Below, in pieces: positions 1,266 through 11,886 of a stretch of DNA of 11,886 bases. This DNA comes from a virus: UHGV virus genome UHGV-2004451; one strand, 5' to 3'. Numbering within the stretch: position 1 is the first letter of the stretch; every line of letters begins with the position of its first letter. The translations under genes were made by a program, and so were the position numbers. Below the pieces are notes generated by a model, which was not told the origin of the DNA, searched no databases, and saw only the letters and a list, made by a program, of their open reading frames with translations.

Positions 1266-2225
1266 ATGGAACCGAATACTATCCATACCTGCGACGCTCT
1301 GACCGGTCTTCGGCTGCTTCCCGACGAGTCGGTGGACTGCATCGTCACTTCGCCTCCGTACTGGCAGATGCGCGACTACGGCATCGGCTCGATCGTATGG
1401 CCGGACGGTTGGTCGGGACAGTTGGGGTTGGAACCTACGCGCGAGGAGTTCATCGCGCATCTGTGCATGATCTTCGACGAGTGCCGCCGCGTACTGAAAC
1501 CCTCCGGCACGCTGTGGGTGAACTTGGGCGATTCGTATAGCAAACCATACAAATACAACCGCCGACAAGATCCCAAGTGGAGCGAGAATTCGAAGAACAG
1601 CGATTGCCTTATAGACATCAAGGTCGATACGGTGCGTCACCGTATTCCATCCAAGTCGCTCTGCAATATTCCGAACAAGTTCGCTGACGAAATGATCCTG
1701 CGCGGCTGGGTGCTGCGCAACGAGATCATTTGGTACAAGCCCGCCTGTATGCCCGCCTCCGTGCGGGATCGTTTTACGGTGGACTTCGAGAAGATGTTCT
1801 TCTTTACCAAGTCGCAGCGATACTATTTCGAGCAGCAGTTCGAACCGTATGCCGCTTCATCTTTCGACCGCTATAAAAATCCGGTAACGCTCAACGGCAA
1901 AAGCGAAAAGTATCGCTGCATCAGCGGAAAACCTCACGGACGCCTCGAGATAAATCCTCGCGGTCGCAATATGCGGTGCGTGTGGCGTATCCCTTATGAA
2001 CCGAGCCACGAGGCGCACTATGCCATGTATCCTTCGCGATTGGTCGAGACGCCGATCGAAGCCGGATGTCCCGAAGGGGGACTCGTTCTCGATCCCTTTA
2101 TGGGCAGCGGAACGACGGCAGTCGTCGCCCGACGATTAGGACGCCATTACATCGGCTTCGAACCCAATCCGGAGTATGTCGCAATTTGCGAGAAGAGACT
2201 CGAACAGCAAACCCTCTCCCTTTGA
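1266..2225 (+). CDS. Beta-class N4/N6 DNA methyltransferase (N6_N4_Mtase-type); the SPPY catalytic motif favours N4-cytosine or N6-adenine specificity
   Basis: ATG start 10 nt after the stop of the upstream methyltransferase. Catalytic motif IV SPPY (CIVTSPPYW) is N-terminal and AdoMet motif I (VLDPFMGSGTTAVVARRLGRHYIGFE) is C-terminal, which is the beta-class order. A lower-G+C central segment (about 1540-1700) sits where a target-recognition region is expected. Confidence 0.9.
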   Translation: MEPNTIHTCDALTGLRLLPDESVDCIVTSPPYWQMRDYGIGSIVWPDGWSGQLGLEPTREEFIAHLCMIFDECRRVLKPSGTLWVNLGDSYSKPYKYNRRQDPKWSENSKNSDCLIDIKVDTVRHRIPSKSLCNIPNKFADEMILRGWVLRNEIIWYKPACMPASVRDRFTVDFEKMFFFTKSQRYYFEQQFEPYAASSFDRYKNPVTLNGKSEKYRCISGKPHGRLEINPRGRNMRCVWRIPYEPSHEAHYAMYPSRLVETPIEAGCPEGGLVLDPFMGSGTTAVVARRLGRHYIGFEPNPEYVAICEKRLEQQTLSL

Positions 2226-2226
2226 T

Positions 2227-3003
2227 ATGTCTTCGCATACTTACGACAATCCCGCCTATATCGCTTCGTGCTCGTTCGGCAAGGATTCGATCGCTACGAT
2301 CCTCCTTGCCCTCGAGCACGGCGAGCCGCTCGATGCCGCCGTCTTCTCGGAGGTGATGTTCGACCACTGGCGCAATATCAGCGGCGAGATACCCGAACAC
2401 ATCGAGTGGATCTACTCGACGGCTATTCCGCGTCTTGCAGCCTTGGGCGTACGGGTCGATGTCGTCCGTTCGGAGAAAGACTATCTTACGTTATTCCATA
2501 CGGTCATAGGGAGCGGTACGCATAAGGGTATGCTGCGCGGCTGGCTCATCGGCGGCAAGTGCTGCGCCAACCGCGACCTCAAAATCCGGCCCATACATCA
2601 TTATTACGGTCGTTTCCGCAAGCAGGGCGTCGTGCAGTACGTCGGCATCGCGGCCGACGAACCGAGACGCCTCGCGCGGATGCAGGACAAAGGGTATATC
2701 CGTAAAACAAGTCTGCTCGCCAAGTACGGGTACACCGAGGCGGATGCCCGACGCAAGTGCGAAGAATACGGTCTGCTGTCGCCTCTCTACCGAACCTCGC
2801 ATCGGGGCGGTTGCTGGTTCTGCCCCAACTGCCGCATACCGGTCTTCGCCGAACTGCGCCGCCGACATCCCGAACTGTGGCGCGAACTGCAACGGCTTTC
2901 GAAGGTCGGAAATAAGTCATCCGAAGGCTTCAAATACGGGCAGACTTTCGAGGAGATCGAGCGGAGGATGGATCTCTTCGAACACGCGCCGACGCTATTC
3001 TAA
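2227..3003 (+). CDS. PAPS-reductase / DndC-like PP-loop ATP pyrophosphatase family protein (putative nucleotide or DNA modification enzyme)
   Basis: N-terminal PP-loop-like motif SCSFGKDS (SxGxDS type) and a C-terminal cysteine cluster CWFCPNC. The ATG at 2227 lies 1 nt after the TGA of the upstream methyltransferase (TGAtATG), implying translational coupling. An in-frame ATG at 2176 would overlap the upstream gene by 50 nt and is considered less likely. Confidence 0.7.
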   Translation: MSSHTYDNPAYIASCSFGKDSIATILLALEHGEPLDAAVFSEVMFDHWRNISGEIPEHIEWIYSTAIPRLAALGVRVDVVRSEKDYLTLFHTVIGSGTHKGMLRGWLIGGKCCANRDLKIRPIHHYYGRFRKQGVVQYVGIAADEPRRLARMQDKGYIRKTSLLAKYGYTEADARRKCEEYGLLSPLYRTSHRGGCWFCPNCRIPVFAELRRRHPELWRELQRLSKVGNKSSEGFKYGQTFEEIERRMDLFEHAPTLF

Positions 3004-3007
3004 ATAA

Positions 3008-3090
3008 CTGAAAATAAATATGATAATAGTTGCCGGATAACTTGCGTGTTCCGAATAACGATGTTATGTTTGCAGTACGATAAACAACTG
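3008..3090 (+). promoter_or_regulatory. Promoter repeat copy 1 (Bacteroidota-type -33 TTG / -7 TATGTTTG)
   Basis: An ~82-bp AT-rich element about 95% identical to copy 4. TTG at 3042-3044, a 20-nt spacer, and TATGTTTG at 3065-3072 match the TTTG-N19-21-TAnnTTTG consensus of Bacteroidota primary promoters. The leader contains GATAAACAACTG. It lies directly upstream of gene 3118..3540. Confidence 0.6.
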
Positions 3091-3117
3091 AATAATAAAC
3101 GATTAAAACACCCGAAC

Positions 3118-3540
3118 ATGACAAGTGCACAGGCAAAACAGATCGCATCGAACTATATGCGGCAGCAGAGCGATTACGTATTTTCGGCGGTAACGGTTAA
3201 AAGCCTCGCTCCGGCGAACGGACCAGTTAAGGTGTGGCTCACCACCGAAGACGACTACGGGGACGAACTGATCGTCGAGGTCGAGATGGACCCGCAGTCG
3301 AATGAGATCCGCTGGAAGAAGATCTGCAACACGGGACGCCTATCCGAATATCTGAAGCCGGCTACTCGGATCGATAAACTTTCGGCAGGACAACGCTTCC
3401 GGCTGCAAGGCGACTGCGTGGTTTACGAGTTCGTGGACAATGTAAAGGACCGCAGCAGTATTCCCTATATCATCCGACGGGCGGACCGGTCCGGTTGCGT
3501 ATCGAGAGTCGGATGGCAGGAAGTTTTTCCTATCGAGTAA
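3118..3540 (+). CDS. Hypothetical small protein (141 aa), first gene behind promoter repeat copy 1
   Basis: The ORF track gives 3046..3540, but its GTG start lies inside the promoter repeat (-7 box at 3065-3072). The first ATG downstream of the predicted transcription start is 3118. Balanced amino-acid composition; stop TAA at 3538-3540 is followed by a hairpin at 3550-3576. No recognisable motif. Confidence 0.6.
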   Translation: MTSAQAKQIASNYMRQQSDYVFSAVTVKSLAPANGPVKVWLTTEDDYGDELIVEVEMDPQSNEIRWKKICNTGRLSEYLKPATRIDKLSAGQRFRLQGDCVVYEFVDNVKDRSSIPYIIRRADRSGCVSRVGWQEVFPIE

Positions 3541-3549
3541 CCGATAACC

Positions 3550-3576
3550 GCGCACCTTGCCGAAAGGCAGGTGCGC
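3550..3576 (+). terminator. Stem-loop downstream of gene 3118..3540 (possible terminator or RNA processing site)
   Basis: GCGCACCTTGCC-GAAA-GGCAGGTGCGC: an 11-bp GC-rich stem with one bulged base and a GAAA tetraloop. No U-tract follows, so intrinsic-terminator function is uncertain. Confidence 0.4.
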
Positions 3577-3589
3577 ATAAAACGATACG

Positions 3590-3808
3590 ATGATGAAACT
3601 CCGCCGAACAAAAACCGGAACTTACACGATTGCGGGTATTACCGCAACTCAATATCGCGCCCTTGCGGCTGTGCTTACTACCGCCGATGGGCGTTGCTTC
3701 GACGAGCAGGACGGGGACGGCAACTATTACAGCAACGACGATTTCGTCTGCTCGCTCGATGGCGATGAACGCGAGGCATTGCGACAGGTGTGCGACGCGC
3801 TTCGATAA
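3590..3808 (+). CDS. Hypothetical small acidic protein (72 aa)
   Basis: ATG at 3590, 14 nt after the 3550-3576 hairpin. The C-terminal half is Asp/Glu-rich (DEQDGDGNYYSNDDFVCSLDGDERE). The competing frame 3571..3768 is Arg-rich and looks like a shadow ORF. Stop TAA at 3806-3808 lies just before promoter repeat copy 2. Confidence 0.45.
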   Translation: MMKLRRTKTGTYTIAGITATQYRALAAVLTTADGRCFDEQDGDGNYYSNDDFVCSLDGDEREALRQVCDALR

Positions 3809-3819
3809 CGTGTAAGATA

Positions 3820-3901
3820 TTGAAAATAAATGCGATAATAATTGCAGAAAGACTTGCGTGTCCCGAATTATGATGCCATCTTTGCAGCGTGATAAACAAC
3901 T
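3820..3901 (+). promoter_or_regulatory. Promoter repeat copy 2 (degenerate -7 box CATCTTTG)
   Basis: Same element with several substitutions. TTG at 3854-3856, 20-nt spacer, CATCTTTG at 3877-3884, then GATAAACAACT at 3891-3901. Directly upstream of gene 3917..4249. Confidence 0.5.
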
Positions 3902-3916
3902 AATATAGAGCGTATT

Positions 3917-4249
3917 ATGAGTACAAAAGCAAGAATCGGAGTAAGACTTCCCGACGGAAAAATCAAAAGCATCCATATATGGCGGGACGGACATCCCGAT
4001 ACGTTGGGCGAAATGTTGTCTGCGCACTACAATACATTGGAATCGGCAATGGCACTGGTCGAACGAGGCAACATAATCGATGTGGAGGCACGTCTCGAAG
4101 AGTGCCGGTTCGAGAAATCGAATGAACGGTGCGAAACCGAGCCTCGGATTTATAAAACGGTCGCCGCCTACGAACGAGAAATCGAGGAGGATATATGTTA
4201 CAAATATCTCTATCGGGACGGCAAGTGGGAATACCGGGCGGTCGATTAG
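3917..4249 (+). CDS. Hypothetical small protein (110 aa), behind promoter repeat copy 2
   Basis: ATG at 3917, about 25 nt downstream of the predicted transcription start of promoter copy 2. Protein-like composition with a Glu-rich C-terminus. Followed by a structured 3' region containing hairpins at 4285-4302 and 4337-4367. Confidence 0.65.
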   Translation: MSTKARIGVRLPDGKIKSIHIWRDGHPDTLGEMLSAHYNTLESAMALVERGNIIDVEARLEECRFEKSNERCETEPRIYKTVAAYEREIEEDICYKYLYRDGKWEYRAVD

Positions 4250-4284
4250 TAACCGACTTCCGATCGTAAGGAGCGAATGCTCCG

Positions 4285-4304
4285 AGCCTCCGACGGGAGG
4301 CTTT
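4285..4304 (+). terminator. Hairpin plus short T-run in the 3' region of gene 3917..4249
   Basis: AGCCTCC-GACG-GGAGGCT (perfect 7-bp stem) followed by TT. It is preceded by a second small hairpin GGAGC-GAAT-GCTCC at 4270-4283. Confidence 0.35.
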
Positions 4305-4316
4305 CCCTCGTTTCGT

Positions 4317-4397
4317 CCATTCAGTTGTTTATTGCGACCGGAGCCGTGCATCGTGTACGGCTCCGGTTTTCGTTCGAAGGCGGGACATTGTTTCTGC
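4317..4397 (+). repeat. Conserved structured 3' element, copy A
   Basis: CCATTCAGTTGTTTATTGCG, then the CCGGAGCCG/CGGCTCCGG hairpin with a loop containing CATCNTGT, then GGGACATTGTTTCTGC. Shares flank, stem core, loop motif and downstream motif with copy B. Confidence 0.6.
4337..4370 (+). terminator. Intrinsic-terminator-like hairpin (core of conserved 3' element copy A)
   Basis: ACCGGAGCCGT-GCATCGTGT-ACGGCTCCGGT: a perfect 11-bp stem followed by TTTT. Confidence 0.55.
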
Positions 4398-4469
4398 AAC
4401 GGATCTTCGGCAGCATGTATATTTACCATATGGGATATGCTTGATAAATAGTTGATATTCTTTGAATTA

Positions 4470-4533
4470 AGTTGTCGATAAACTTGCGCGTCCCGAATAA
4501 TGATGTTATGTTTGCAGTGCAACAAACAATTGA
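4470..4533 (+). promoter_or_regulatory. Promoter repeat copy 3 (core only; upstream part divergent)
   Basis: TTG at 4484-4486, 20-nt spacer, TATGTTTG at 4507-4514, with the conserved core CTTGCGCGTCCCGAATAATGATGTTATGTTTGCAGTGC. The leader motif is altered to CAACAAACAATTG. Upstream of gene 4560..4778. Confidence 0.55.
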
Positions 4534-4559
4534 ACTACAATCTATTAAACGACTCGATC

Positions 4560-4778
4560 ATGAATACTGCGAATCGAAAAAGAACGGAGATCGACGCCGA
4601 ACTCGACCGGTTGGAGGTCGAATTCGAAAAGAACCGTAAGGAGATGCAAGGCCTTGCCGACGAGAACAGACGTGCCGGCAACCGCTACGGCGAATTATCG
4701 AATGCGAATCACGACATCAACAACCGGATCCTCACATTGCTCGCTGAGCGTTGGGAATCGGAAGAGACGGCTGATTGA
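4560..4778 (+). CDS. Hypothetical small coiled-coil protein (72 aa), behind promoter repeat copy 3
   Basis: The ORF track gives 4500..4778, but that start lies inside promoter copy 3 (-7 box at 4507-4514). The first ATG in the leader is 4560. The sequence is charged with heptad-like spacing (EIDAELDRLEVEFEKNRKEMQGLADENRR). Stop TGA at 4776-4778 is followed by a GC-rich hairpin. Confidence 0.55.
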   Translation: MNTANRKRTEIDAELDRLEVEFEKNRKEMQGLADENRRAGNRYGELSNANHDINNRILTLLAERWESEETAD

Positions 4779-4791
4779 CGAAACGAGAGAC

Positions 4792-4824
4792 GACCCCGCC
4801 GAGAAACCGTCTTCGGGGCGGGGT
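4792..4824 (+). terminator. GC-rich hairpin downstream of gene 4560..4778
   Basis: ACCCCGCC...GGCGGGGT: an 8-bp G+C stem with a 16-nt loop that can partly pair (GAA/TTC), followed by TT. It begins 14 nt after the stop codon. Confidence 0.45.
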
Positions 4825-4855
4825 TAAGACCCGAAACAGGAGAACACATAAAGAG

Positions 4856-5053
4856 ATGAAAACGATGAATGCAAATGCAACGGTAGGCGACAAGATTCGC
4901 ATTATCCATCTTCGCGACGAGGACAGCCGTTACGACGGCAAGGAGGGTACGATCGAGTTCATCGACTCGCTCGGACAACTGCACGGCACGTGGGGTGGCT
5001 TGGCAGTCATTCCCGAAGTCGATCGGTTCGTAATTATCGAGAAACCGGAATAA
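4856..5053 (+). CDS. Hypothetical small protein (66 aa), beta-rich, reminiscent of small DUF-type domains common in phages and mobile elements
   Basis: The ORF track gives 4775..5053, starting at a TTG that overlaps the upstream hairpin. The first ATG after the hairpin is 4856. The motif GDKIRIIHLRDEDSRYDGKEGTIEFIDSLGQLHGTWGGLAVIPEVDRFVI looks like a small SH3/KOW-like beta domain. That assignment comes from memory only and is not verified. Confidence 0.5.
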   Translation: MKTMNANATVGDKIRIIHLRDEDSRYDGKEGTIEFIDSLGQLHGTWGGLAVIPEVDRFVIIEKPE

Positions 5054-5074
5054 TCGCCGGCAACGATAATGCTC

Positions 5075-5096
5075 GGTTCCGCCATCTTTTCGGAAC
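5075..5096 (+). terminator. Weak hairpin downstream of gene 4856..5053
   Basis: GGTTCCG-CCATCTTTT-CGGAAC: a 6-bp stem with a U-rich loop, lying between the stop codon and promoter repeat copy 4. Confidence 0.3.
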
Positions 5097-5106
5097 ACCT
5101 AATTTA

Positions 5107-5188
5107 CTGAAAATAAATACGATAATAGTCGCCGAACAACTTGCGTGTTCCGAATAACGATGTTATGTTTGCAGTACGATAAACAACT
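5107..5188 (+). promoter_or_regulatory. Promoter repeat copy 4 (near-identical to copy 1)
   Basis: TTG at 5141-5143, 20-nt spacer, TATGTTTG at 5164-5171, leader GATAAACAACT at 5178-5188. About 4 mismatches to copy 1 over 82 bp. Directly upstream of gene 5204..5491. Confidence 0.6.
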
Positions 5189-5203
5189 AAAAAAGAGCGA
5201 ATT

Positions 5204-5491
5204 ATGAGAACGAACATCGAACGGTTTTTAGAGAGATTCCCGAAGAATGCCACGAATTGGGCGCAGGCGACGGACGAGGTGCGCGACATGGCTCGCAAGG
5301 CTCGCGAATTGTTGGAAGAGTACGAAGGCGTCATCGTCGAACCGGTAAATTTCCGGGCTATCGAGACCCCGGCCGAGTGGAATACCGAAGGTCGCGAGTT
5401 CATCCTGACGAATTTCGATCGCATGGCGGATAGGACCAAAGAGCGCTTCTACGACTACTTCCGCGAGTGGTTCGAAGGCGAAGAGGAATAG
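5204..5491 (+). CDS. Hypothetical small protein (95 aa) with acidic C-terminus, behind promoter repeat copy 4
   Basis: ATG at 5204, about 25 nt downstream of the predicted transcription start of promoter copy 4. C-terminus is FREWFEGEEE. Stop TAG at 5489-5491 is followed by a perfect 14-bp hairpin at 5500-5536. Confidence 0.65.
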   Translation: MRTNIERFLERFPKNATNWAQATDEVRDMARKARELLEEYEGVIVEPVNFRAIETPAEWNTEGREFILTNFDRMADRTKERFYDYFREWFEGEEE

Positions 5492-5499
5492 ACCGACGC

Positions 5500-5536
5500 A
5501 CGGATGCTCCCCGCAGCTCGAACGGGGAGCATCCGT
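5500..5536 (+). terminator. Strong hairpin downstream of gene 5204..5491
   Basis: ACGGATGCTCCCCG-CAGCTCGAA-CGGGGAGCATCCGT: a perfect 14-bp stem beginning 9 nt after the stop codon. No U-tract follows. Confidence 0.5.
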
Positions 5537-5594
5537 CCTAACCCCGGAGTAGGGTTGCACACGTCGTCTCTTTCGATAGGAAATCTATCGTGCT

Positions 5595-5672
5595 CCATCA
5601 GTTGTTTATTGCAGCCGGAGCCGCATCATGTGCGGCTCCGGCAATCTCATTATAGAGGGACTTTGTTTCAGC
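5595..5672 (+). repeat. Conserved structured 3' element, copy B
   Basis: CCATCAGTTGTTTATTGCA, then the same hairpin core, then GGGACTTTGTTTCAGC. About 85% identical to copy A with a structure-preserving substitution in the stem. Confidence 0.6.
5614..5642 (+). terminator. Hairpin (core of conserved 3' element copy B)
   Basis: GCCGGAGCCGCA-TCATG-TGCGGCTCCGGC: a perfect 12-bp stem. Homologous to the 4337-4367 hairpin, with a compensatory T-A to C-G change at the loop-proximal pair. Confidence 0.5.
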
Positions 5673-5716
5673 GATGAGGCCTTTTGCCATTTTACCTTTA
5701 TTCCCGCGACAAAGGT

Positions 5717-8581
5717 ATGGCGATTTTCGGTCTAAAATATTACGCTGAACTTCGCTCGAAGTACAAGGGCGTTTTGTGGCGCGTGGAGATTTCGGAGCGG
5801 GGGTACGCAGGTCCGTCGGAGGAGATGGCCTTCGACGGCGGTACGCCGTTGCAGATTACGTGGGAGAAACGGGGCGACGAGTTCTACGTGCCGGTCAAGG
5901 CTTCGGAGGCGACCATCAATATCCTCTGCAAGGAGAATTTCCATTACCTGGCTCTGTTCACCTCCGATCCCCGTTATTTTCGCGTCTCGATTTTCCGCAA
6001 TCGGCAGCTCTATTGGCGGGGCTACGTCACCTCCGACCTCTACTCCGAGAACTTCACCGCTCCGCCCTATACCGTTACGATCAAGGCCGTGGACGGCTTC
6101 AACCTCTTGTCGAGCATTCCGTTCCGCGACCTCGTACATATCGGCATCGCGGGCAGGCGGTCGCTATGGGAACTGCTCTCCTCCTGCATCGACTTGTTGG
6201 AGTTGGATCTCGATACGGCGGACTGGATGGATCTGTATGTCGAGGGCATGGACGAGAACGCCTCTTCGCTCCGTCAAACCTATATCGACCTCGAACGGCT
6301 CTACTACGTCTACGAGGAGCCTACCTATCGCGACATCCTCGAACTGTGCCTGCGTCCGTTCGCCGGACAGATCTTCCAGTCGAACGGTGCCCTGCATATC
6401 CGCCGCGCCGTATCGCTCTACCGAACTGCCCGTCCCGTGAATTTCTATCGCGTCGGCACGGAGCATCCCGTCGGGCGGATCGTTACGGGCAGCGGACTGC
6501 GGCTCGTGATCCATACCGGTGCGCAGGTCGTCACATCGGCTGCACGCGAGCGCATCGACGGCATGTGGACGGGCGACCTGCACATCGAGGGAAGTTCGAC
6601 GCTCGACATCGTCCCTGCGCTGCGCAAGGTCTCGGTCGATGTAAAGAACAAGAGCCTCGACAACCTGATCGCCCGCATCGGGTTCTACGATCCCGACGCT
6701 TGGACGGATCCGCACGGCTTCGTCTCCGTGAAGAGCGGAGAGGAACTCTATTTCAGCGGCGAGGATGCCTATCGGGGTGCGGAAGTCGTAACTCGGGGCT
6801 TTCCCGTCGAGCAGTGCAACTTCCCGCTCGTATGGGAGTTCGGGTTGCAGACCTACCATCGGGAGTGGGGACTGGGCATTTACCGCCCGAACGAAAGCGT
6901 CGATGTCGCGGTGCATTACGGCGTCCGCATCGTCGGCGAAAAGGCGACATACAGCCTCGCCGAGAGCGGTTCGTGGGTGCAGTCCTCCGACGGGGAGATC
7001 GCGAGTACGGTCAAGACCGGCAACGAGCAGAACATGAAGATCGAGATCGACGGCATCCCCTGCGACGGCGAGTGGCGGTTCTTCGTCCGGCAGACGCTCA
7101 TCGGCAAGATCACGACCTATACCGACCGCTTCGGCAATCCGAGCGGCCGCACTTCGGGCTATATGGAGAGCGCCGCGTTCCGCAAGATGACGCTCTCGAT
7201 CGATGCGGGCGACAGCTACGACAAGGGTTTGCGCTACGAGTCGCTCGTCGATCCCGCGAACAATGTCGATATGTCCGTAACGCTTCCCGTGAGCGATATT
7301 CCCGCCATTCCGAACGACCGGCTGCTCTATGCGCTCTACTACCTCGATGCCGCCGGCAATCCCACGCGCATCTGGCATACGAAAGGTCGGAACGACTACG
7401 ACACGCTGGTCGGTCATATCGTGCAGGGAGCATTGCGGTACAAGCAGCTGCCGAGCCGGCGCATCACGGGCGAGATCTTCACGGGGCAGCATATCGATAT
7501 GAATACGGTGGTTCGGGACGACAAGTTCCTGAACGCCGCCTATTACCTGAACTCCATCGAACTGAATGCCCTCGACGACTCCTACAACAGCGAACTCACG
7601 GAGATGCCGCGCCTGCTCGCAACGGAGAGACCGCCGGAGGGCGACGACTGCATAGCGGTCGCGACGCTCTCCTTCACGGTCGGCAAGGCGATCCGCTGCC
7701 TGAACCGTCTGCTGCTCCAGTCCGTCGATAAAAAGACGGTCTATGCCTTCGACACCGCCACGCGGCAGGTACGGGAGATCTACCGCAGCACGGCATCCTT
7801 CGAGATGTACGAGGCGGACGAGGGTTTCGTCGCGGTGGACGGGAAAGGGGTCCGCTACCTCGACTATCGCGGTACGGTCGAACGGATATATACCCCGCCG
7901 GAGGAGTACCGCAACGTCGCGACCTACATGGACGGATATATCCATATCCTGAAATCCTACCGGCAATATATCGGTCCGCGGGGCGGCGATGCCGGCGGAC
8001 GCAGCGCCCGCACGGCAGAGGACGAGGATCCGAACTATCGCACCTATCGTTACCTCTCGCGCCCGGAGTGCAAGTACATTTCGCCCGATGCCTCGACCGG
8101 ATATCGCGGACGGGGATATGCCTACGAGGGTACGCCGATGTCGGGTGCGATCCTCGCCCTGCGGCGTACGGAAAATACGATCGTCGTGAATACCTCGCAT
8201 GGCGCCTATCTGCACGACAAGCGGTTCCACCAGCCCTGTAAGATGCTGCAATTCGCTGCGGGCGAGCAGATCGTCACCGTCTCCGACAACTATATCGGCA
8301 TCAACGCCGACGATATGCTGTGGTTCTATCGGCGGGATTCGATTACCGAGCGGACGCTGCTCCGGCGGTTGGGACGCTGGGCGGATCACGCCGACCATAC
8401 GATGAGCGAGGTCGTACACTCCTACGACGACGGCATCTTCATCCGGAACTTCCGCGACGACACGACGACCGACGTTCGGAACGCCGCCGGCTGGGGCGAG
8501 AACATCATGGGGCTGTTTTTCATCTGCGGCGACCTCTATATCGTGCGCGAACGGGCGATTTACAAATACATTCCTGAATAA
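5717..8581 (+). CDS. Large hypothetical protein (954 aa from the first ATG; 965 aa if the TTG at 5684 is used); possibly a virion or tail-associated structural protein
   Basis: This is the only one of three overlapping long ORFs with protein-like composition (aromatic-rich, balanced). The overlapping 5776..7731(+) frame is Arg/Gly-rich and 6164..8854(-) is Ser/Arg-rich, both typical shadow ORFs of GC-rich coding DNA. No Walker A or other catalytic motif was seen. The gene lies in the same + strand block as the tape measure gene. The function call is inference only. Confidence 0.75.
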   Translation: MAIFGLKYYAELRSKYKGVLWRVEISERGYAGPSEEMAFDGGTPLQITWEKRGDEFYVPVKASEATINILCKENFHYLALFTSDPRYFRVSIFRNRQLYWRGYVTSDLYSENFTAPPYTVTIKAVDGFNLLSSIPFRDLVHIGIAGRRSLWELLSSCIDLLELDLDTADWMDLYVEGMDENASSLRQTYIDLERLYYVYEEPTYRDILELCLRPFAGQIFQSNGALHIRRAVSLYRTARPVNFYRVGTEHPVGRIVTGSGLRLVIHTGAQVVTSAARERIDGMWTGDLHIEGSSTLDIVPALRKVSVDVKNKSLDNLIARIGFYDPDAWTDPHGFVSVKSGEELYFSGEDAYRGAEVVTRGFPVEQCNFPLVWEFGLQTYHREWGLGIYRPNESVDVAVHYGVRIVGEKATYSLAESGSWVQSSDGEIASTVKTGNEQNMKIEIDGIPCDGEWRFFVRQTLIGKITTYTDRFGNPSGRTSGYMESAAFRKMTLSIDAGDSYDKGLRYESLVDPANNVDMSVTLPVSDIPAIPNDRLLYALYYLDAAGNPTRIWHTKGRNDYDTLVGHIVQGALRYKQLPSRRITGEIFTGQHIDMNTVVRDDKFLNAAYYLNSIELNALDDSYNSELTEMPRLLATERPPEGDDCIAVATLSFTVGKAIRCLNRLLLQSVDKKTVYAFDTATRQVREIYRSTASFEMYEADEGFVAVDGKGVRYLDYRGTVERIYTPPEEYRNVATYMDGYIHILKSYRQYIGPRGGDAGGRSARTAEDEDPNYRTYRYLSRPECKYISPDASTGYRGRGYAYEGTPMSGAILALRRTENTIVVNTSHGAYLHDKRFHQPCKMLQFAAGEQIVTVSDNYIGINADDMLWFYRRDSITERTLLRRLGRWADHADHTMSEVVHSYDDGIFIRNFRDDTTTDVRNAAGWGENIMGLFFICGDLYIVRERAIYKYIPE

Positions 8582-9528: not shown

Positions 9529-11886
9529 ATGTCCCGGAGAATCGCCGATTTACTTATAAAGATCGGAGCCGACTCGTATGAGTTCCAACAGAAGGCGCAA
9601 CAGGTCGAGAAAGGACTCGGCTCGCTCGAAAAGAAGCTGACCTCCGTCGGCAAGTCGCTCTCGCTGAAGCTCACCGCACCCCTTGCTGCATTGGGCGGCG
9701 TGTCGCTGCACCTGGCCGATGTGCAGGCCAAAGCCGAGGCGAAGGTGCAGCAGGCGCTCAAGGTTACGAATCAGGCCGTCGGTTACAACTTCCGGCAGTT
9801 GGCCGACTACGCTTCGGAGTTGCAGGGCAAGACACTCTTCGGCGACGAGACGATCCTCGACAAATCCACCGCCCGCCTGTTGGCTTTTACTAACATCACG
9901 GGCGAGAACTTCAAGCGTACGCAGGCGTTGGCATTGGACCTCGCCACGGCGTTGGAGATGGATTTGGGTTCGGCGTCGTTGCAGTTGGGCAAGGCGCTCT
10001 CCGATCCCGCGACGAAGCTCTCGTCGCTGTCGCGTGCCGGTATCGCCTTTTCCAAGGAGCAGACGGAGGTAATCAAGAAGCTCGCCGAGACGGGCGACAT
10101 AGCCAAAGCGCAGGCGATGATCCTCGACGAGTTGGAGCGCAAGTTCGGCGGGCAGGCCGAAGCCGCCGCACGGACGGGACTCGGCACCGTGCAGCAGCTC
10201 AAGAATGCGTGGGGCGACTTCCTCGAACGGATCGGTGCGGCCATCATGCCTTTCGCGACGAAGATAGCGGGTGCGCTCTCGACGGTCGTGCAGATGCTGC
10301 AATCGATGTCGCCGGCGATGATGCAGACGATCGTCGTCGTGGCGGGGCTGGTGGCTGCGATCGGTCCCCTTTCGCTCGGAATCGGCGCCGTGATCAAGGT
10401 GCTGCCGATGCTGGCGGCGGGATTTACGGCTCTGTTGTCGCCCGTCGGATTGATTATGGCGGCGGTCCTCGCGCTCGGTGCGGCATTCGCCTACGCCCGC
10501 CTCCAGAAGCAGAAGATGATCGACGAGATGGCCGAAACCGAATCGCTCGACGAGCTCGAACGCAAGTTGCAGGAGAATATCGCCGAGCAGAAAGAGATCA
10601 TCGCCACGACGACCAAGACGCGGATGGTTCCGAATTTCGGTGGATTGGTCGCCGGATTTATCTTGCAGAAAGTCCCCGACGAATCGAAACTCGCACCCCT
10701 GCGCAAGGAGTACGATCTGCTGACGGCAGCGATCGAAAAGAAACGCGAAACGGAGAAGAAGGCGGCCGAGGCGCAGGCCGAACTGGACAAGGTAACGGAC
10801 GAGGCTCGCAAGCAAACCGAGGAGTTGATGAAGTCCATCGCCGGAACCAACGCGCAGACGGAGCAGAGCACGGGCATCATCGGTAAATTGCAGGCGCGGA
10901 TCGAGGCCCTCGAAAAGAAGAAACTGCTGCCCGAATCGACCGTCGAGGATATCGCTGCGGCGAATGCCGAGATCGGGAAGCTACAAAAAGAGCTGGAGCG
11001 GATCCGAAATATCAAGCCCGAAGACCTGAAGCCCGTCGTCAAGATGGACGGTATTCTGCCCGCGGGCTTCGAGTTGGAACTGCCGGCTCCGAAACTCAAA
11101 ATGGGCGATCTGAAACCCGTAACATCGCAATATGCGCAGCAGATGCAGGCGATATTCGGTGCGGTGCGCGAAGGGCTTTACGGCTGGGCGGACGACAACA
11201 GCGCATACTTGCAAAATAACCTCGCCGATACGGTCTCGATGGTCGAGAACTACACGACAGCGCTGACGGCGAAGGGCTGGTCGTTCTCGGCGGCATTGGA
11301 GCATGTCCACGCCACGATTGCGGAGGTGATGACACGCTTCGATCAGCAGGTGTCGAAGTTTATGGCCGACAGCATCGTCGCTGCGGCGGAGGCTATCGGG
11401 CAGATCATCGCCGGCGATTTGGGATTCGGAGGGCTGATGAAAGCGATTCTGACGCAGTTCGCCAATTTTCTGAAAAATATCGGCTCGCAGCTCATCGAGT
11501 TCGGCGTGATGATCATCGCCTTCAAATCGGCGTTGAGATCCGTCCTCGCTAACCCGTGGGCGGCGATCGCCATCGGTGCAGCAATGGTCGCGGCAGCAGC
11601 CGTGATGACGGCGCTCATCAACAAGAATGCGCAGGAGAGCGTGCCGGCATTGGCCAACGGCGGTCTGGTATACGGTCCTACCTATGCGATGGTCGGCGAC
11701 AATCCCAATGCCGGTACGGATCCCGAAGTCATCGCTCCGCTGTCGAAGTTGCAGGCGATGCTCCCGACAGGCGGCAGCGCGCAGAACCTACGAATAACCC
11801 TCGGCGGTCAATTGACTGCCAAGGGTCGGGATTTGGTGTATGTTCTCGGAAAAGAGAACTTCAAGTCAGAGGTGCTGGGTGGGTGA
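9529..11886 (+). CDS. Phage tail tape measure protein (785 aa)
   Basis: The N-terminal region matches the conserved tape measure core signature as I recall it (LGKALSDPATKLSSLSRAGIAFSKEQTEVIKKLAETGDIAKAQAMILDELERKFGGQAEAA). It is followed by long Gly/Ala-rich hydrophobic segments (IMPFATKIAGALSTVV...GLVAAIGPLSLGIGAV and AIAIGAAMVAAAAVMTALI) and an extended Glu/Lys-rich coiled-coil region. Stop TGA at 11884-11886 coincides with the window end. Minus-strand and off-frame ORFs inside it are GC-shadow artefacts. Confidence 0.85.
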   Translation: MSRRIADLLIKIGADSYEFQQKAQQVEKGLGSLEKKLTSVGKSLSLKLTAPLAALGGVSLHLADVQAKAEAKVQQALKVTNQAVGYNFRQLADYASELQGKTLFGDETILDKSTARLLAFTNITGENFKRTQALALDLATALEMDLGSASLQLGKALSDPATKLSSLSRAGIAFSKEQTEVIKKLAETGDIAKAQAMILDELERKFGGQAEAAARTGLGTVQQLKNAWGDFLERIGAAIMPFATKIAGALSTVVQMLQSMSPAMMQTIVVVAGLVAAIGPLSLGIGAVIKVLPMLAAGFTALLSPVGLIMAAVLALGAAFAYARLQKQKMIDEMAETESLDELERKLQENIAEQKEIIATTTKTRMVPNFGGLVAGFILQKVPDESKLAPLRKEYDLLTAAIEKKRETEKKAAEAQAELDKVTDEARKQTEELMKSIAGTNAQTEQSTGIIGKLQARIEALEKKKLLPESTVEDIAAANAEIGKLQKELERIRNIKPEDLKPVVKMDGILPAGFELELPAPKLKMGDLKPVTSQYAQQMQAIFGAVREGLYGWADDNSAYLQNNLADTVSMVENYTTALTAKGWSFSAALEHVHATIAEVMTRFDQQVSKFMADSIVAAAEAIGQIIAGDLGFGGLMKAILTQFANFLKNIGSQLIEFGVMIIAFKSALRSVLANPWAAIAIGAAMVAAAAVMTALINKNAQESVPALANGGLVYGPTYAMVGDNPNAGTDPEVIAPLSKLQAMLPTGGSAQNLRITLGGQLTAKGRDLVYVLGKENFKSEVLGG

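Follow-up and report, generated by a model that had tools for sequence, protein, structure and literature searches.

The stretch of UHGV virus genome UHGV-2004451 analyzed here (the window, 11,886 nucleotides [nt] in length) carries four copies of a promoter repeat, P1 to P4, ahead of small genes, and the leader shared by these promoters is complementary to a block of sequence at the foot of two downstream hairpins, elements A and B. The complementarity is genuine and withstands statistical testing, and a narrow clade of Alistipes prophages has conserved it. The best reading of it, which we put forward tentatively, is RNA-level pairing of the shared 5' leader with the flank that precedes the terminator hairpin. 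The RNA interpretation given in the original prediction, in which transcripts running from a promoter copy to a 3' element could pair their two ends, is plausible.

The leader sequence GATAAACAACT, which had been reported in three promoter copies, was found exactly at positions 3079-3089, 3891-3901, and 5178-5188; the first of these had been given as 3080-3090, which is off by one base. The flank CAGTTGTTTATT lies at 4322-4333 and 5599-5610 on the plus strand and is the reverse complement of the leader, as predicted, with AATAAACAACT at 4323-4333 and 5600-5610 on the minus strand. The sole departure from perfect reverse complementarity is the last T, which stands opposite a leader G and would form a G-U wobble. 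As exact inverted repeats, the matches comprise 14 nt between P1 and A (3080-3093 with 4319-4332; 100% complementary) and 12 nt between P1 and B (3080-3091 with 5598-5609), and the P2 and P4 leaders give a 13-nt match with one mismatch. The complement ends 2 to 3 nt before the hairpin in A, in B, and in the variant of A that is found in L121-type relatives (A', described below).

The match between leader and flank is not due to chance. The 61 nt upstream of each hairpin were compared with all four promoter copies, the measure being the longest exact inverted match, and the comparison was repeated on dinucleotide shuffles of the flank. The 14 nt seen for A were reached in 0 of 3,000 shuffles, and the 12 nt seen for B in 4 of 3,000. 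The premise of AT-rich phage DNA, stated with the original prediction, does not hold: G+C content is 57% for the window overall and 50% for the cassette region (3001-5716). A motif count over the whole window, allowing up to 2 mismatches, is a weak test (5 occurrences versus 1.64 expected, with 7 of 200 shuffles reaching 5).

The promoter copies are 100 to 115 nt long and 60 to 80% identical over 101 to 115 nt. Each contains ACTTGCGTGTTCCGAA, a spacer of ~10 nt, and (T/C)A(T/C)(G/C)TTTG, and thus agrees with the consensus for Bacteroidota sigma-ABfr (TTTG near -33, TAnnTTTG at -7; PMC7366714), these being promoters by sequence only. They are best explained as strong host-type promoters, each of which would drive one or two small genes, and we infer that they are early in timing. 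The leader motif, [G/A]ATAAACAACT, begins 6 to 7 nt past the -7 box, and the start codon follows 15 to 28 nt beyond its end in all four copies. Taking the transcription start from the position of the -7 box, we infer that the motif constitutes the extreme 5' end of the cassette mRNAs.

Elements A and B are paralogous copies of one module of ~115 nt, and the best explanation of their position is that they close units of the cassette array. The left half of the module consists of TCCAT(T)CAGTTGTTTATTGC (19 to 20 nt), a spacer of 2 to 3 nt, and a hairpin with the core arms CCGGAGCCG/CGGCTCCGG (~-28 kcal/mol). In the right half, ~15 nt are followed by GGGAC(A/T)TTGTTTC(T/A)GC, a further 18 to 24 nt, and TTTACC(A/T)T(A/T)T; in the module alignment, a TTGTTT core is present on both sides of the hairpin. 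A similar pair of boxes (GGGACAAAGTATCCC, ~20 nt, and TACCTTTA(C/T), ending ~20 nt before the start codon) precedes the gene for the 954-amino-acid (aa) virion protein in most relatives examined. This pair is kept whatever lies further upstream, with only a degenerate form in a group of 55% identity (L152-L159). Judging from its placement, it is probably a late promoter or regulatory region, and a duplicate of it forms the right half of module A within the cassette array. By the usual description of an intrinsic terminator, a GC-rich hairpin followed by a U-tract, A has a stem plus TTTTCGTT, and B in the window has a stem without a U-tract.

Co-folding of the two ends, which the original prediction had proposed, bore out the suggested interaction in silico. 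Using the ViennaRNA partition function on full-length model transcripts from P2 to A, P4 to B, and P1 to A (488, 476, and 1,300 nt, respectively), we found that leader nt 2 or 3 to 14 (P2 to A and P4 to B) or 3 to 17 (P1 to A) paired with the 3' motif with a probability of 0.9 to 1.0. The predicted fold is a panhandle that closes the whole mRNA, with its helix abutting the terminator stem. When the first 20 nt of each leader were used as a query against the downstream unit of that leader, the 3' motif was the best target (z, -3.5 to -7.1; 0 of 100 shuffles were as good), and it was the best leader target in the window, L140, L121, and L365. The pairing spans leader nt ~2 to 16 and the start codon lies at ~+31 to +43, so that the ribosome-binding site is not occluded, as it would be in pairing of the icaR subtype (see below).

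On this model, any transcript from these promoters that reached A or B would pair its extreme 5' end with the block before the hairpin. The resulting helix of 12 to 16 bp (21 bp in the relative L365) would be stacked beside the terminator stem, where it would bury the 5' end in the manner of a 5'-terminal stem-loop and lengthen the 3' structure. The outcome would be altered mRNA decay and possibly altered translation of the leader-proximal gene. A processed 3' fragment composed of seed and terminator could, in addition, act on leaders in trans.

To examine conservation, we scanned viral contigs with 14-mers and genome and metagenome contigs with 18-mers; most matches were due to chance, and ~22 contigs proved to be true relatives. 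These are Alistipes prophage contigs of 80 to 99% identity that carry the elements, and the core pairing is kept in all 37 of their promoter/element pairs (22 contigs). One lineage (L121, L133, L365, and L371) has no cassette composed of P2 and the 110-aa gene (g110), and the orthologous element A' directly follows the 72-aa gene. This element has the motif TCCATTCAGTCGTTTATTGTG, a hairpin of largely new sequence (CCCGGGG...CTCCGGG plus ATTCTTTTAT), and recognizable downstream boxes. The only long invariant block in the alignment of A with A' (alignment A1) is GT.GTTTATTG; outside this block the two are roughly half identical, as estimated by eye rather than computed, and the flanking DNA is 88 to 91% identical. 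The 3' motif is thus the most conserved block of the ~115-nt module. A T-to-C change in A' creates an A.C mismatch with the P1 leader in L121, L133, and L371, and a leader G in L365 restores a G-C pair at this position, giving a 21-nt duplex of -27.4 kcal/mol. This single path from A-U through A.C to G-C is weak evidence of covariation, because promoter copies often differ by A or G at this position of the leader.

The fate of the module in rearranged genomes is also informative. L215 carries ~3 kb of foreign, low-GC DNA (reverse strand, ~1450-4480) in place of the region between the Dam gene and A, with genes apparently on the opposite strand (judged by eye, without an open reading frame [ORF] call). 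The insert takes the place of the second methylase gene, the PAPS-reductase-like gene, and cassettes P1 and P2, and its right junction lies inside motif A. There the GGGAC and TTTACC boxes are intact, but divergence has affected the left half of motif A and the two hairpin arms. In L138-, L130-, and L121-type genomes, the DNA past hairpin B is unrelated to that of the window, with homology stopping at the stem or 6 nt after it, and the B motif and hairpin are kept. The decay in L215, together with the persistence in L138- and L130-type genomes, argues that the motif and hairpin belong functionally to the upstream unit.

Several observations weigh against RNA pairing as the function of the complementarity. 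The transcript ends are deduced from promoter and hairpin positions. Neither A nor B was flagged by a simple terminator scan of the window, and hairpin B is directly followed in the window by CAATCTCATT (CAATCTCA), which is no U-tract (in L138-type relatives, it is followed by TATTTTATTTT). Two gene-proximal hairpins located between a stop codon and the 3' motif (4286-4301 and 5500-5536) might end some transcripts before the motif is reached, and units P1 and P3 in the window run into the next promoter without a 3' element of their own. The original prediction paired specific units, P2 with A and P4 with B; these leaders do pair with these elements in silico, but any leader pairs with either element about equally, and the duplexes between noncognate leaders and flanks are as stable as the cognate ones, so that there is no unit specificity. 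Second helices that seemed specific to a unit (AAACGA/UCGUUU for P1-A and GAGCG/UGCUC for P4-B) were ruled out as a source of such specificity, as they also occur in equally stable noncognate pairs. Because A, A', and B all descend from one module, as paralogues or orthologues, the matches of A and B count as one coincidence that arose once. The A-to-G and C-to-T variants of the leader say little, because 9 of the 11 possible transitions in this A/C-rich sequence are tolerated through wobble pairing. Finally, the 3' partner is a feature of a narrow clade. The promoter and leader are also present in more distant relatives (L142, L143, and L160, with ~75% virion-protein identity; L152-159, with 55%; L157, with 51%; and L135), but ~40 units of more distant relatives contained no significant 5'-3' complement and no CCGGAGCCG hairpin. 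The leader is therefore conserved in them for another reason that pairing does not explain, such as a role in the promoter or initiation region, in translation, or as an operator. A covariation test in the distant relatives (L142, L143, L160, L135, L152-157, and others) was impossible, there being no 3' complement in them.

An operator at the DNA level would account for some of these points. A phage or host DNA-binding protein would bind a site close to GCAATAAACAACTGAAT that occupies +1 to +17 of each cassette promoter, as well as the inverted copy at the left ends of A and B; it could bracket or loop the unit and repress it, or link the shut-off of these promoters to the boxes that resemble a late promoter. 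At 4 to 5 promoters per genome, the motif overlaps the predicted transcription start, a typical repressor position, and the sequence rATAAA at the predicted start is conserved across the whole promoter family, which 3' pairing cannot explain. The 3' block is moreover conserved in sequence rather than in structure, A and B also carry the boxes found ahead of the first virion gene in most of the relatives examined, and the TTGTTT core recurs on either side of the hairpin. We nevertheless consider an operator unlikely. The site is not palindromic, there is no obvious need for a DNA site to adjoin a hairpin, no candidate regulator was identified, and the 22.9 kb of L140 examined contained no further copies. 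The distant relatives have the leader but no second site. L138- and L130-type genomes retain the 3' copy though the late-promoter boxes are no longer beside B, and in L215, where the boxes persist, the site decays along with the hairpin once the upstream sense cassettes are lost.

The block might instead have no selected function, the left end of the module being an inverted fragment of a cassette leader that was captured during shuffling and copied with the module. The array is highly recombinogenic, and the junctions of cassette gain and loss between close relatives lie inside direct promoter repeats: in L130 (minus strand, ~9674), the P2 core and the P3 leader form a hybrid promoter, and g110 and element A are gone; L140 (6857), L130, and L124 have an extra promoter-gene cassette, P0, between the PAPS-reductase-like gene and P1; and P2-g110 is absent from L121 (3988-4145), L133, L365, and L371. 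Close relatives differ by flipped hairpin loops; the feature has a single origin and is limited to one narrow clade; and over 17 nt (GCAATAAACAACTGAAT) the leader consensus is matched by the reverse complement of A, with weaker similarity beyond, as after an inverted duplication. A relic of this kind is nonetheless improbable in our view, given that the 19-nt block is identical at 18 positions between A and A' while the remainder is about half identical by eye and the hairpin arms are largely replaced. The core is also invariant in ~20 copies of B, including those of the clade with 80% identity, the left half has diverged in the one genome without the upstream unit (L215), and there is no evident mechanism by which an inverted piece of the leader would come to lie precisely at the base of a hairpin. 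Far less credible still is an invertible or mobile segment whose recombination sites would be the 12- to 21-bp inverted repeats, as in Bacteroidales invertons or the terminal repeats of small elements. The repeats do flank segments of 450 to 800 bp immediately past a promoter, the prophage encodes a tyrosine integrase, and a large inversion of the structural gene block has one end beside hairpin B. Yet the cassettes between the repeats are collinear with the window in 22 of 22 contigs, with no flipped copy in this contig-level comparison; cassettes are gained and lost at direct promoter repeats, not at the inverted ones; no invertase gene is adjacent; and at the far end of the large inversion, homology ends at a gene start without a matching repeat.

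If the RNA pairing that we prefer is functional, it would represent a rare bacterial case of pairing between the 5' and 3' ends of one mRNA and, to our knowledge, the first in a phage of gut Bacteroidota. The mRNAs of Bacteroidota lack Shine-Dalgarno sequences, and the rules of their decay are poorly known. The design would be modular, with one leader and one preterminator block serving any gene placed between them; this would explain uniform expression of shuffled cassettes, and the leader/block pair would be reusable as a synthetic-biology part for Bacteroidales.

Two systems offer a close comparison. In Bacillus subtilis hbs, a 14-bp interaction of the 5' untranslated region (UTR) with the 3' UTR modulates cleavage by RNase Y (PMC5737220), and in Staphylococcus aureus icaR, pairing of the 5' and 3' UTRs blocks translation and creates an RNase III substrate (PMC3868564). 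As in both, 12 to 16 nt of the 5' UTR are complementary to the 3' UTR of the same predicted transcript. Unlike that of icaR, the pairing in the Alistipes prophage would use the extreme 5' end and not the ribosome-binding region. It differs from both systems in that the 3' partner is located directly at the foot of the terminator hairpin; in that it is not gene specific, one leader serving 4 to 5 promoters and one 3' block two terminators; and in its setting, a prophage of a Bacteroidota host in which the pairing is predicted from sequence and folding.

Stem-loops at the 5' terminus stabilize mRNA, for example, that of Escherichia coli ompA. The predicted helix would similarly leave at most 2 to 3 unpaired nt at the 5' end, the feature that protects from 5'-end-dependent decay, but its partner is 450 to 1,300 nt away and there is no local hairpin. 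Small RNAs (sRNAs) derived from 3' UTRs, in which a seed is followed by the terminator of the mRNA itself, occur in enterobacteria. They have also been reported in Bacteroides thetaiotaomicron (PMC7366714). Elements A and B resemble them in having a conserved single-stranded block directly 5' of an intrinsic-terminator hairpin, with conservation setting in abruptly at the left edge; in contrast to such sRNAs, the predicted targets would be the 5' ends of the phage's own cassette mRNAs, the parent mRNA included. It is conceivable, though we think it improbable, that A and B are processed to seed-plus-terminator RNAs (seed of 19 to 20 nt) that base-pair in trans with the identical 5' ends shared by all cassette mRNAs (4 to 5 promoters), or that they act in cis as a generic end clamp that circularizes the mRNAs. 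A trans-acting seed RNA would place the whole promoter regulon under the feedback control of one RNA. We know of no description of either mode of phage gene control for Bacteroidota.

The cassette array as a whole resembles the PeSL (promoter-early stem-loop) cassettes of T4-type phages (PMC2839356 and PMC4122927). Shared features are repeated strong host-type promoters, stem-loops between small genes of unknown function in a plastic region, and close relatives that differ by cassette insertion, deletion, or replacement, with junctions in repeated regulatory sequence. A further mark of PeSL cassettes is the formation of mini-circles through recombination between their repeats (PMC2839356). Unlike in PeSL cassettes, promoter and hairpin do not form one compact motif, A being ~115 nt upstream of P3; the conserved hairpin is present only at A and B, most promoters having unrelated intergenic hairpins; and the Alistipes case involves a sigma-ABfr-type promoter and a temperate phage. 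A leader complement beside the stem-loop is not described in the portion of PMC2839356 that was covered. The locus would still be a clear Bacteroidota analogue of T4-type PeSL cassette arrays if the pairing were not functional. The features of the array are listed in Table 1.

Table 1. Promoter, leader, 3'-element, and cassette-gene features of the window
Feature	Position	Strand	Description
P1 core	3041-3072	+	CTTGCGTGTTCCGAA (-33 region) to TATGTTTG (-7 box, 3065-3072)
Leader motif copy 1 (P1)	3079-3093	+	GATAAACAACT at 3079-3089, extended to ATAAACAACTGAAT (3080-3093); start codon 3118
P2 core	3853-3884	+	-7 box CATCTTTG at 3877-3884
Leader motif copy 2 (P2)	3891-3901	+	GATAAACAACT; start codon 3917
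110-aa cassette gene (g110)	3917-4249	+	Predicted to be driven by P2; phrog_1987, without assigned function
Gene-proximal hairpin, unit P2	4286-4301	+	GCCTCC-GACG-GGAGGC then TTTCCCTCGTTTCG, partial U-tract; fold of 4262-4316, -23.3 kcal/mol
3' motif A	4316-4335	+	TCCATTCAGTTGTTTATTGC (core 4322-4333); left end of module; complements leaders P1-P4
Hairpin A	4337-4367	+	GC-rich stem of 14-15 bp, core CCGGAGCCG/CGGCTCCGG, loop TCG, ~-28 kcal/mol
U-tract after hairpin A	4368-4375	+	TTTTCGTT; intrinsic-terminator-like 3' end
Module A right half	4382-4431	+	GGGACATTGTTTCTGC (4382-4397), TTTACCATAT (4422-4431); paralogues of boxes upstream of 954-aa gene
P3 core and variant leader	4483-4531	+	AACAAACAATT at 4521-4531; start codon 4560
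P4 core	5140-5171	+	-7 box TATGTTTG at 5164-5171
Leader motif copy 4 (P4)	5178-5188	+	GATAAACAACT; start codon 5204
95-aa cassette gene	5204-5491	+	Predicted to be driven by P4
Gene-proximal hairpin, unit P4	5500-5536	+	14 bp, no U-tract after
3' motif B	5594-5612	+	TCCATCAGTTGTTTATTGC (core 5599-5610)
Hairpin B	5614-5642	+	GCCGGAGCCGCA/TGCGGCTCCGGC, ~-28.5 kcal/mol
Module B right half	5657-5701	+	GGGACTTTGTTTCAGC (5657-5672), TTTACCTTTAT (5691-5701); putative late-promoter region; start codon of 954-aa gene 5717

The hairpins of A and B vary at their centers. The loop of hairpin A (4351-4353) is TCG in the window and L009 and CGA in L051, L138, and L125; that of hairpin B (5626-5630) is TCATG in the window versus CATGG or CATGA in other relatives. 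Such flipped palindrome centers between close relatives suggest recombination or template switching within the stems. A conserved hairpin loop serving as a protein-binding site, as in lambda nut-type elements, was not found, the loops differing between A and B and being inverted between close relatives. The reverse complement of element A and the part of the promoter that precedes the start site seemed to be homologous through a shared ACGATG-N16 spacing; this was attributed to chance, because it falls in the hairpin loop that is flipped in relatives. A bidirectional terminator was ruled out, as the minus-strand sequence past the hairpin is A-rich, not U-rich. No Rfam 15 covariance model matched at the elements, and the only two matches elsewhere in the window were subthreshold and due to chance. 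On the minus strand, an ATG lies 0 to 1 nt past the inverted motif in both elements, because TCCAT reads as ATGGA, and opens ORFs at 5455-5598 and 4250-4321 (47 and ~24 codons, respectively). These small ORFs are probably spurious; they overlap, in antisense, the 3' ends of the forward genes, the 3' UTRs, and the hairpins.

Upstream of the promoter cores, P1, P2, and P4 share an AT-rich element, (C/T)TGAAAATAAAT.(C/T)GATAATA (3008-3030, 3821-3843, and 5107-5129), ~10 to 35 nt before the -33 region. The sequence upstream of P3 is unrelated (GATAAATAGTTGATATTCTTTGAATTAAGTTG, 4440-4480) and recurs in L142 and L160. These two contigs (at 7958 and 7963, respectively) also have a truncated promoter copy ahead of a homologue of the 95-aa gene, in which the -33 region is immediately followed by aaaagacaaaattATG, without a -7 box or leader motif.

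The window is best explained as the accessory and early region of an Alistipes prophage. It had no match among deposited phages by megablast, and it is 92 to 99.6% identical to metagenome contigs and to contigs of Alistipes metagenome-assembled genomes. Because the matches lie in contigs as large as 282 kb (Alistipes) and 697 kb (metagenome), we regard it as integrated. Its genes encode, in order, a D12-class Dam methylase (473-1255), an N4/N6 methylase (1266-2225), and a PAPS-reductase-like protein (2227-3003), followed by six small ORFs, the 954-aa virion protein (5717-8581), two further small ORFs, and a 785-aa ORF whose stop codon (11884-11886) exactly closes the window. Judged by size and position, without a family search, the 785-aa product is a putative tape-measure protein.

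Relatives differ in the orientation of a block of ~9.4 kb, which extends from the 954-aa gene to a gene for a 233-aa DUF285/BspA-like protein and is inverted relative to the methylase/cassette block and the integrase. Genomes of the window type have the order cassettes ->, block ->, <- integrase, and those of the L138/L130/L145 type have integrase ->, block ->, variable genes, <- cassettes; in L147, Pfam confirmed the identity of the integrase. Contigs compared for block order with the window at ~5643-5716 were L130, L138, L139, L149, L145, L147, L140, and L144. Three independent contigs share their first nucleotide, which lies 69 nt upstream of the 954-aa gene. We ruled out that the block had undergone a clean site-specific inversion, as homology at the far junction ends at the gene start with no matching repeat. 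An attP site or prophage end at hairpin B was likewise ruled out, because the circularized L138-type order is not that of the window and large Alistipes contigs contain each of the two orders internally. In L130 (804-1715), the putative tape-measure gene is followed on the opposite strand by an AbiJ-like abortive-infection gene, beyond which lies a variable set of genes that includes those for an alcohol dehydrogenase and a CoiA-N/Top1 zinc-ribbon protein.

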